The translations under genes were made by a program, and so were the position numbers. Positions 299-2,753 of a DNA stretch of 64,000 bases are shown piece by piece (position 1 is the first letter of the stretch; every line of letters begins with the position of its first letter). The notes beneath the pieces are model-generated. The model was not told where the DNA came from. It ran no database searches and saw nothing but the letters and a program-made list of their open reading frames with translations. This stretch comes from Myxococcota bacterium (lineage in GTDB: Bacteria; Myxococcota_A; UBA9160; UBA6930), in assembly GCA_965223415.1 (NCBI GenBank), contig OZ245002.1, positions 3,648,001-3,712,000 of the forward strand. Direction: 5' to 3'.

Positions 299-1260
299 TC
301 ACTCGACGAGCTCGCCGTCCTCCGGGATGACAACGGCGCCGCGGAAGCTCTCGCTCACCAGGTTCCGATACTGGGATTGGAATACCGGAGGAGGGCGCAG
401 CCGCGTCAGGACGAGGCCGCGCACGCCAGCGCGCGTGGCCAGGGCGCCGGCGTCCTCGAGGCGCAGGTGGCGGGCGCCTTCCGCCTGGAGCTCCTCGAGC
501 TGGTCCACCTCCGCTTCACTCGCGGCGTCGAGGGAGGCGCCGTAGAGGGCCTCGGTCCAAAGCCAGTCCGCGTCCTTGGCGAGGGCCGCCACCGCCGCCG
601 TGGGGAGCCCATGGCTGGCGATCGCGATGGACCGGCCGCCGGATTCGATCCGCACGCCCAGGGTGGCCGGCTCGCTTCCGGCGAGCGGCACGACCCGGAC
701 GGTCATGGCGCCGACCTCGAGCTGGGTCTCCGCCGAGATCTCGCGGACCGTGGTGAGCCCGCCCTCCGGCGGCAGGCCCCACCACTCGGCCAGGCGAAGG
801 GCCTCGGCCTCGTGGGCGCTGCGCAGTCGCTCCACCAGGGCCGCCGTGCCCGGTGGCCCGAGCACGGTGAGCGGTGCCTCCCGCCGGCCGAGCCAGCCCG
901 TGAGCCACAGGTCGTCCAGGCCCAGGGTGTTCTCCGGGAGCAGCGAGGTGAGGACGAGATGGGAGGGCTGCCAGACCGGGATCTCGGCGGCTCGCAGCGC
1001 TTGCGTGACGCCGCGGCCCGCGTCCACCAGCACCATGGCGTCGCTGGTCCCGACCGCCACCGCCGGACCGAGGCGGTTGTGGTTCTCGAAGGTCCCCCCG
1101 GTACCGACGGCCACGGCCGACAGGGTCTCGAACTTCCGGGCCTCGAGGGCGGCGATGCCTCCCGCCACCGCCTCGAAGCGCTTCGACGCCCAGGCCATCA
1201 CCCACATCACGACGACCAGGACGAAGAGCACCGCCAGCACACCCAGGCGCAGACCGCCGC

Positions 1261-1264
<4 letters not shown>
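299..1264 (-). CDS. Membrane-anchored RNase Z/BN-like metallo-beta-lactamase-fold protein with degenerate metal motifs
   Basis: ATG at 1264 overlaps the purU stop (ATGA). N-terminal TM helix, then GTGG, LVDAG.G and LTVLGPPGT motifs of the RNase Z family. The HxHxDH position reads TSLLPEN. Confidence 0.75.
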
Positions 1265-2127
<863 letters not shown>

Positions 2128-2233
2128 GGGCGGCGATGCTAGCCACGCCCCGGGCCGTCTGATAGGGTGCCGGACAGGGGAAATCACTCATTCCCGAGTC
2201 TCGGCGGGCGGTTCGTCCGCGCCGGCGAGGCGA

Positions 2234-2441
2234 CCCGGGGCGGTGGGATCGGCGCCCTCAAGGCACCCGGGACCGAAGCGAGAACTGGGTCTCGTGGGGT
2301 ACGACCAACGCCGAGAAGGAGGTGCACAAACTTGGACCAATCTCAACCTACGGCGAGTGAGGTGGCGGCGTTCTAGCCACCCGAGCCGAAGATTGATTCT
2401 TCTCGGTCGTTGGGACGTCGTCCCAGGCCACCGCCCCCGGG
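2234..2441. ncRNA. Candidate structured non-coding RNA (unassigned family), possibly carrying a 14-codon sORF
   Basis: Closing inverted repeat GGGGCGGTGG (2237-2246)/CCACCGCCCC (2428-2437). Long inner stem CCAACG-CCGAGAAGGA (2305-2320)/TTCTTCTCGG-T-CGTTGG (2397-2413), then CAATCT/AGATTG and an apical GGTGGC/GCCACC hairpin. Lower GC than the flanks, no convincing long ORF. Confidence 0.45.
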
Positions 2442-2753
2442 AGCGCGGACGCCGTAGCCGCATCCGGGTCCACGAGGACCTGCTCCCGGGGGTCGCTCAT
2501 TCCGCGACCGGCTGCGCGTCGGCGACCTGAGGGCGTCGGAGCTCCGGGACGGCTCGAAGCCCGCGCAGCGCCCCGCTTCCTGCCCGGACGGGGAAGGAGC
2601 TCGGAACCTCCGGGCTCCGGCGAGGAGAGGGCGCCGCGCGGGCGGAACCTCGAACCGCATCCAAGCTGGCATGCCCGCCCGACGCAGGCTGTGCGCGCGG
2701 TCACAGGGGTGCCATCATCCCACTCCATGCAATCACTTCCGGATCGACACAGG

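Follow-up and report, generated by a model that had tools for sequence, protein, structure and literature searches.

The window analysed here is a 64,000-nt stretch of a Myxococcota bacterium genome (assembly GCA_965223415.1, contig OZ245002.1, positions 3,648,001 to 3,712,000 of the forward strand), and our subject is a structured RNA gene with an embedded mini open reading frame (mini-ORF), located in a 625-nt intergenic region between divergent genes. The initial annotation, made from the sequence alone, had flagged positions 2234-2441 as a candidate novel non-coding RNA. This interval is part of the conserved unit, but alignments of relatives place the unit itself at about 2175-2500 on the + strand, with the 5' hairpin (2178-2195), a variable hairpin (2202-2225) and the terminator (2434-2492) falling outside it. 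The element is a stand-alone, single-copy RNA gene of about 325 nt, and a DNA search of its own 5.83-Mb single-contig genome returned the self match alone. Two other identities were considered and rejected: a mobile repeat resembling a miniature inverted-repeat transposable element, ruled out by that single self match, and coding on the - strand, where the ORFs 2188-2463(-) and 2348-2728(-) lack Pfam matches and the region is conserved in the manner of an RNA.

DNA matches to the element were found in 38 of the 41 genomes of the 'relatives' sample (G000 counted), and, where the phylum was sampled evenly, BLAST matches in 45 of the 47 genomes that belong to the order. A hidden Markov model (HMM) built from 30 relatives and used on stretches outside the order gave matches in two large genomes (E 3.8e-30 and 4.4e-19) and none, at E up to 10, in the stretches of G104 and G176 that had been fetched on weak BLAST hits. 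The structure alignment, to which counts out of 65 refer below, contains 65 distinct relatives gathered by similarity, the ORF not being used as a criterion; identical duplicates and one locus cut by a contig end (L065) were left out. The + strand is supported by the ORF, by U-rich tails after the terminator in most relatives and by frequent G-U pairs, such as alignment column pair 97-230, which is G-U in 52 of the 65 sequences.

Within the RNA lie a Shine-Dalgarno (SD) sequence and a 14-codon mini-ORF, for which the coordinates are given, with those of all other features, in Table 1. Because the 16S rRNA of the organism ends in GGATCACCTCCTTTCT, the SD is a 9-nt perfect complement of the 16S tail, and in other lineages this complementarity extends up to 15 nt. 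The start column is occupied by TTG in 30 relatives, GTG in 21 and ATG in 14, never with C, and the stop column by TAG in 34, TGA in 26 and TAA in 5. The ORF has 14 codons in 60/65 sequences, 15 in four, through in-frame 3-nt insertions, and 20 in one, and the distance from SD to start is kept at 5-9 nt within the order. From this pattern of sequence conservation we infer that translation of the mini-ORF is under selection. An SD-like GAGGUGG that overlaps the ORF segment 2361-2366 is also present, about 9 nt ahead of the stop codon.

The first half of the encoded peptide varies freely and the second half, T-A-S-E-V-A-A, is fixed in nucleotides, third codon positions included, and coincides with paired RNA segments; the ORF of the window ends ...SEVAAF. 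Since third positions are fixed and the segments are paired, RNA pairing, and not the peptide, probably explains the conservation of the ORF. The same observations bear on the possibility that the locus is a micropeptide gene, in which the 14-residue peptide (...TASEVAAx) would be the effector and the RNA structure would set its amount. Such a gene would agree with the conserved start, frame and stop, with the recurrence of the C-terminal E-V-A/V-A-x in four phyla and with the high ribosome density on a family member described below. However, in the members read Glu is always GAG and Val always GUG, without synonymous variation and except for two rows with AAG, although in high-GC hosts synonymous GUC would be expected if the residue alone mattered. 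Moreover, the conserved codons are paired RNA segments with compensatory changes, both E->K rows have altered partner loops, the N-terminal half and the last residue vary freely, and the peptide strings were not found in the main texts of the literature, supplements lying outside the search. We consider a micropeptide gene rather unlikely.

The pairing that constrains the 3' half of the ORF is long-range. Two predicted pseudoknot helices, PK1 and PK2, would clamp this half of the ORF and are well supported. One pair of PK1 is G-C in 51 sequences, A-U in 8, G-U in 6 and unpaired in none (n=65), and the PK2 helix was also predicted independently by RNAalifold from 30 sequences. RNAalifold, again with 30 sequences, proposed a further pairing of GCCG 2310-2313 with CGGC in the ORF, which was dropped because rows with A at 2353 fit the P6 loop (n=65). 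A third pairing, suggestive at the sequence level, may join the loop of the 5' hairpin (2184-2189) to ORF positions 2355-2360: the loop reads TCACTC in 53 of the 65 relatives and is the exact complement of ORF GAGTGA, and in the two rows where the ORF hexamer is altered (L017 and L019) the 5' loops are altered too, partly compensating.

The remaining structure was evaluated both by folding and by covariation. The strong folding first noticed at 2234-2441 was confirmed, since the + strand folds at -105.9 kcal/mol versus a shuffle mean of -86.7 (standard deviation 5.4; z -3.53) and 0/200 shuffles fold as well; the z value for the - strand is -3.94. All three elements described at the outset, namely closing stem, small 5' hairpins and long interrupted rod, are present in its minimum-energy fold. 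The small hairpin placed at about 2266-2294 corresponds to the covarying P3 (2278-2295). The rod is correct at its base, which is P4 with 4 pairs changed on both sides (one of them in 26 cells), but the SD and the 14-codon ORF in its apical part were overlooked; besides enclosing both of these and a post-stop hairpin, P4 pairs over the 5' half of the SD. For the whole named structure, pairing, double-change and covariation values were reached by 0/500 shuffles in four of five measures, and the fifth, further pair types, by 15/500, and sliding the partners by 1-3 columns lowered pairing from 86.5% to 32-49%.

In the 5' part of the RNA, the stem of the 5' hairpin covaries in the upstream alignment of 30 relatives, for example as GCGGA/TTCGC and GAGGAT/ATCCTC. 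The outer local helix of the 5' domain appears in 60/65 single-sequence folds, with the compensatory variants CCUGAGG/CCUCAGG, CCCGCGG/CCGCGGG, CCCAGGG/CUCUGGG and GUCCGC/GCGGAC; in the alignment it is just 45% paired, its 3' strand being misplaced in the MAFFT columns. For the P3 loop CUGGG, CCCAG 2422-2426 is a possible partner (92.6% paired; 2 rows show CUGAG/CUCAG compensation), a pairing that is mutually exclusive with P5 because both use the same CCC. The P3 loop and the P5 5' strand GGGAC pair with overlapping parts of GUCCCAG, each with its own compensatory change, which suggests two alternative conformations.

Table 1. Features of the RNA gene and its surroundings. Positions are those of the window; pairing percentages and numbers of pairs changed on both sides refer to the structure alignment.
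Feature	Position	Strand	Description
Inferred promoter	2140..2168	+	-35-like TAGCCA 2140-2145, 17-nt spacer, extended -10 TGATAGGGT 2160-2168
5' hairpin	2178..2199	+	GGGAA 2178-2182 with TTCCC 2191-2195; loop TCACTC 2184-2189; then conserved GAGT 2196-2199
Variable hairpin	2202..2225	+	Between 5' hairpin and conserved body; length and sequence differ; usually a GC-rich hairpin
5' domain	2229..2271	+	Conserved GGCGAC, then CCCGGG 2234-2239 with CCCGGG 2266-2271 around an inner hairpin
P3 hairpin	2278..2295	+	GCGAG with CUCGU; conserved loop CUGGG 2285-2289; 80% of cells paired; 5/5 pairs changed on both sides
P4	2310..2407	+	GCCGAGAAGGA 2310-2320 with UUCUUCUCGGU 2397-2407; 79% paired; 4/11 pairs changed on both sides
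Shine-Dalgarno	2316..2324	+	AAGGAGGTG; GGAGG almost invariant in 65 relatives
Mini-ORF	2332..2376	+	TTG...TAG, 14 codons, MDQSQPTASEVAAF; starts 9 nt past GGAGG
PK1	2348..2355 with 2450..2457	+	ORF CUACGGCG with P6 loop CGCCGUAG; 99% of cells paired
PK2	2361..2366 with 2427..2432	+	ORF GGUGGC with GCCACC; 98.7% paired; 2/6 pairs changed on both sides
P5 hairpin	2412..2424	+	GGGAC with GUCCC; 87% of cells paired; 2/5 pairs changed on both sides
GCCACC box	2427..2432	+	Directly 5' of the terminator; equivalent box in actinobacterial members is GCAGUCACC
Terminator	2434..2503	+	CCCCCGGGAGC 2434-2444 with GCUCCCGGGGG 2482-2492, then tail; 97% paired; 9/11 pairs changed on both sides
P6 hairpin	2445..2461	+	GCGG with CCGC; inside the terminator; near-invariant loop ACGCCGUAG; 98.8% paired; 1/4 pairs changed on both sides
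M20 peptidase gene	ATG at 2754	+	Downstream neighbour in the window

A promoter is read at 2140-2168 because two motifs, GATAnnnT and a TAGCC-like one further upstream, keep a fixed distance where the upstream regions of 30 relatives are aligned, and transcription would probably start near 2175. The closing stem noticed in the initial annotation (2234-2246 with 2428-2441) forms in the minimum-energy fold and is pairable in 84% of cells, but it has no clear covariation. Measures that count pairs and pair types showed no excess, being reached by 162/500 and 482/500 shuffles, and three other measures were reached by just 4, 6 and 24 of 500. The 3' strand of this stem overlaps the 5' arm of the terminator, which covaries strongly, and the 5' strand has a local partner instead, 2234-2239 with 2266-2271.

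The overlap between closing stem and terminator, which share 2434-2441, would also permit a ribosome-dependent transcription attenuator for the downstream gene (an M20 peptidase here, an AMP-binding enzyme in many relatives), in which GCCACCGCCCCCGGG, released by a ribosome on the mini-ORF, would pair with the 5' CCCGGGGCGGUGG, so that the closing stem would replace the terminator. The frequency with which the stem can pair is compatible with such a device, and the U-poor tail of the terminator in the window might permit read-through. The neighbouring genes give it a mixed record. Among 30 loci of the order, a co-oriented AMP-binding gene follows in 10 and an M20 peptidase gene in 4, but in at least 5 the downstream gene lies on the opposite strand (CTP_transf_3, Cyclase, ABC_tran), and the neighbours are wholly different between phyla; no co-oriented downstream gene is kept throughout the 30 order loci or across phyla. 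Against an attenuator there are also the lack of clear covariation in the closing stem, whose 5' strand has the better-supported local partner, the absence of the whole 5' domain from actinobacterial and acidobacterial members, and the gap of about 260 nt between the RNA and the start codon of the M20 gene. This attenuator is in our view quite improbable, and the more general proposal of a regulatory leader, also made at the outset, did not find good support, given a downstream gene that changes between relatives and frequently has the opposite orientation.

On the upstream side, a divergent PurU-like gene is found in 13 of the 30 order loci. In the window this position is taken by a gene at 299-2191 (-), with its start near 2128, whose 630-residue protein product matches Lactamase_B_2 only weakly, at 23.2 bits versus a cut-off of 27, in the C-terminal third; homologues of this protein flank the RNA in L017 and L019 too.

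At gathering thresholds, an Rfam search of the whole window gives two tRNAs alone. In a permissive scan of 2100-2760, RF02471 (Ms_IGR-5) aligned over model positions 1-184 at 2308-2501 (+) with 27.7 bits (E 2.2e-4 in the 661-nt search) and, though sub-threshold, is the only meaningful Rfam match at the locus. Judging from the sequence, the element is best read as a remote and enlarged relative within the Ms_IGR-5 lineage, which Rfam lists as an actinobacterial sRNA (small RNA) and to which it assigns no function. The earlier suggestion of an sRNA of an unrecognised family holds in so far as this is a stand-alone conserved RNA without an Rfam family at gathering score, but the sub-threshold link to Ms_IGR-5 qualifies it. 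On loci that share the motif, the RF02471 model scored 185 bits in Mycolicibacterium and 93.9 bits in Streptomyces, which served as positive controls, and it aligned in full length to loci of Thermodesulfobacteriota (34.7 bits), Terriglobia (31.9 bits) and Pyrinomonadaceae (28.2 bits). A whole-genome search with RF02471 missed the locus and gave just an 18-bit partial match elsewhere, so that this route was uninformative.

Both the window form and Ms_IGR-5 have an extended SD, an ORF of 11-15 codons with the core GUGAGGUGG and a peptide ending in E-V-A/V-A-x, a CACC box directly ahead of an intrinsic terminator, which complements the ORF in the window and is a candidate complement in Ms_IGR-5, and one copy per genome; the criterion of an SD followed by an 11-15-codon ORF was derived here from family members and is absent from the Rfam description. 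They differ in that the window form is about 325 nt long versus about 165-185 nt, adds about 140 nt of 5' domain, made up of the 5' and variable hairpins, P2 and P3, holds within its terminator a further hairpin with a loop that clamps the ORF (PK1), and carries an ORF of 14 codons versus 12. The host is not an actinobacterium either, relatives with the window form being titled Myxococcota or 'Deltaproteobacteria' metagenome-assembled genomes (MAGs). Three points are new: the lineage occurs outside Actinobacteria, it has an enlarged form with the 5' domain, and a hairpin within the terminator supplies the PK1 clamp. In the main texts of the literature, supplements being outside the search, no description of the mini-ORF, of the extended SD or of a non-actinobacterial presence was found, and the main texts that name Ms_IGR-5 give no function for it.

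The spread of the arrangement across phyla was assessed by a scan that took a single genome for each species and looked for an SD and, after a gap, GTGAGGTGG with a stop-like triplet; it returned at least 120 stretches. Among the matches listed, 80 titled loci comprise 68 of Actinomycetota (including Streptomyces, Mycobacterium, Nocardioides and Rhodococcus), 7 of Acidobacteriota, 3 of Myxococcota/'Deltaproteobacteria' MAGs, 1 of Thermodesulfobacteriota and 1 MAG titled Heliobacteriaceae. The same SD and mini-ORF arrangement is seen in 119 of the 120 matches listed, the exception (L181) lying inside a coding region; the ORF has 12 codons in 100 of these 119, and the peptides end ...[R/C/S]EVAA[R/S/G/A/T]. 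For these loci the free observations are the start codon and the ORF length alone. The motif is single-copy in five named genomes. A strict pattern was found in 40/301 genomes of the organism's own phylum, 36 of them in the order (37 with G000) and with 0 control matches, in 2/101 genomes of an Acidobacteriota sample and in 7/81 of an Actinomycetota sample, counts that are lower bounds because the pattern recovers only about three quarters of the known members in the order. The distribution is wide but patchy.

Some individual copies deserve mention. In a Pyrinomonadaceae MAG (L207:1381-1800) an internal CUCCUCCUUUCC mimics the 16S 3' tail and can pair with the whole extended SD GGAAAGGAGG, a predicted sequestration of the SD that is much fuller than in the window. 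Three genomes of the Actinomycetota sample (G450, G465 and G509) carry an identical motif variant in which the place of the start codon, judged by its usual distance from the SD, is taken by CTG and holds no in-frame ATG, GTG or TTG. In L031:60-320, GC-rich hairpins beside the copy give sub-threshold matches to eukaryotic microRNA families, which we read as noise.

Resemblances to better-known structured RNAs had also been raised from the overall shape of the fold, namely to a retron msr-msd and to the signal recognition particle (SRP) RNA, and a local substitute for 6S RNA or an Ms1-like RNA polymerase binder can be added to them. The retron idea was abandoned, as RVT_1 reverse transcriptases are absent both from the whole genome (97% complete, single contig), where one acting in trans might have been located, and from the 118 flanking ORFs of 30 relatives. 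The SRP idea fared no better, with no SRP match in 2100-2760 at E up to 10 and the SRP RNA of the genome located elsewhere (61.4 bits). The initial exclusion of transfer-messenger RNA (tmRNA) agrees with the presence of the tmRNA of the genome at another locus (135 bits), and no strong match to a known family such as 6S was obtained, since RF00013 was not found in this genome and no Rfam family reaches gathering score here. This absence of RF00013, together with its occurrence in only 2/23 sampled genomes of the order versus 95/127 elsewhere in the phylum, is what a 6S substitute would predict. Six genomes (G038, G097, G100, G126, G140 and G157), however, hold both RNAs, the order counts as a single evolutionary event, and the conserved structure is a pseudoknotted fold around an ORF with no rod carrying a central bubble. 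We regard this group of identities as hardly credible. As for the apparent scarcity of 6S RNA, the order may have a divergent 6S RNA, and 6S and the RNA described here are not mutually exclusive.

An indication that ribosomes engage this family comes from Mycobacterium abscessus, in which Ms_IGR-5 has a Ribo-seq value of 3736.6 reads per kilobase per million (RPKM) versus an RNA-seq value of 70.3 (supplementary file 2, sheet 'ncRNAs', of PMC4974804). In the same sheet the RNA-seq/Ribo-seq RPKM values are 1794/490 for SRP RNA, 10836/865 for 6C and 31841/73 for RNase P, and the mRNAs examined in that file mostly have fewer footprints than RNA-seq reads; homologues in both M. smegmatis and M. abscessus carry ribosome footprints (PMC4974804). 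Passages of PMC8079986 and PMC8780764 report Ms_IGR-5 as an expressed sRNA in Streptomyces lividans and S. avermitilis.

The same literature bears on the view that the RNA is an ordinary untranslated sRNA, acting by base-pairing or protein binding, whose ORF-like features would be by-products of GGAGG-rich sequence. In its favour, Ms_IGR-5 first entered the catalogues as an sRNA, its transcript was detected as such in the Streptomyces studies just cited, and the ORF core is conserved in its nucleotides, at the level of the RNA. Yet such an RNA would not be expected to show three start codons without C, three stops and in-frame changes of length among 65 relatives, an SD-to-start spacing held at 5-9 nt in the order, or the very high footprint density of the family member, and we allow it only a slight chance. 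For the window form itself, metatranscriptome contigs from four runs of two studies cover about 2184-2491 with 85-99% likeness, from which it follows that they come from relatives; none lie on 2112-2165 or 2517-2750, although absent cover alone proves nothing. These contigs are a weak hint of a discrete transcript.

That the locus is a genuine RNA gene belonging to this lineage, and that ribosomes engage its mini-ORF, seems to us highly probable. The best explanation overall is that it encodes an RNA switch driven by translation, to which we assign a probability of roughly 0.45; as a statement on function taken by itself, that the RNA works as such a switch is put forward as a tentative proposal. 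In this model, ribosomes would load on the strong SD, invading or displacing P4, and would then translate the 14-codon mini-ORF, unzipping the clamps on its 3' half. Opening of the clamps would flip the RNA from a closed to an open form, and the act of translation would count more than the 14-residue peptide. The RNA would behave as a translation-coupled switch or as an mRNA mimic, reporting on ribosomes or tying them up, and the SD-like GAGGUGG ahead of the stop codon could hold the terminating ribosome. Any output would lie in the RNA: the released segments might become exposed, the stability of the RNA might change, or the occupancy by ribosomes might be the output in its own right.

Several points weigh against a translation-driven switch or against parts of the evidence on which it is built. 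The output of the switch is purely conjectural, and the case for ribosome engagement in this organism is drawn from a family member and from sequence. The metatranscriptome contigs stem from relatives, and the RNA libraries that gave them possibly include DNA. A simple consensus scan of 2080-2780 found no promoter-like and no terminator-like site, and the tail of the terminator is U-poor in the window (GTCGCTCATTCC). With respect to the structure, the pairing of the 5' loop with the ORF amounts to conserved sequence plus two partly compensating rows, and its control is invalid because the reversed hexamer overlaps the same loop and is not independent; P5 and the pairing of the P3 loop with CCCAG each have some support and yet exclude each other. 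With respect to the family, the RF02471 score of 27.7 lies under the gathering cut-off of 45, and the model matched at the right place in only 4/20 order loci (23-27 bits), the rest being without a match at E up to 1 in a larger search. The ORF statistics of the 119 scan loci are partly built in because the pattern demanded an SD and a stop-like triplet, and the complement of the CACC box, which reaches a 9-nt run in 97/119 of these loci, has a reversed control that reaches 9 in 21 and 8 in 65.

A comparison with other systems helps to place the RNA. Like tmRNA (SsrA), it is conserved and pseudoknotted and has a short frame read by ribosomes embedded in it, but tmRNA has a tRNA-like domain and neither SD nor start codon, and the RNA of the window is the reverse. 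With leader-peptide attenuators, such as trpL/rnTrpL (PMC6614838), it shares a short ORF, alternative pairings, an intrinsic terminator and the release of a small terminated transcript. It differs from these in that it has no conserved downstream gene or run of regulatory codons, and no covarying antiterminator clearly competes with the terminator stem. The whiB7 upstream ORF is a further example of a leader-peptide attenuator. Dual-function sRNAs, such as SgrS/SgrT, RNAIII/hld and SR1/SR1P, also hold a translated small ORF; these are narrow in distribution and their peptides have functions of their own, whereas the ORF core of the window RNA is constrained at the RNA level and recurs in four phyla. 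The likeness to 6S RNA is one of analogy alone: 6S mimics the substrate of a core machine and is read for its release, RNA polymerase making pRNA, and here the machine would be that of translation. There is no sequence or structure match between the two, and sequestration by the window RNA is proposed purely by this analogy.

A bolder extension of the translation-driven switch is that the family constitutes a multi-phylum class of ribosome-directed RNAs, mRNA mimics that would capture ribosomes through their extended complementarity to the 16S tail (9 nt in the window, as much as 15 nt in other lineages), hold the terminating ribosome at a second SD-like site and be opened or released by their own translation. 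We consider this extension improbable as it stands. If it were true, the class would stand to translation as 6S RNA stands to transcription.

Conservation across phyla is very rare among bacterial small RNAs, and here a core is common to four phyla, Actinomycetota, Acidobacteriota, Myxococcota and Thermodesulfobacteriota, being single-copy in each genome examined. In this shared core, a ribosome-binding site of great strength is joined by an ORF of 11-15 codons that holds the invariant GUGAGGUGG, a box that probably complements the ORF and a terminator, and in one published data set the ribosome density on a member of the family is far above that on ordinary mRNAs (supplementary file of PMC4974804). 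The larger form found in the window, with its 5' domain and additional clamps on the ORF, makes a translation-driven switch directly testable. If the family does act on ribosomes, it would represent a new layer of global control in soil and sediment bacteria, antibiotic producers included.

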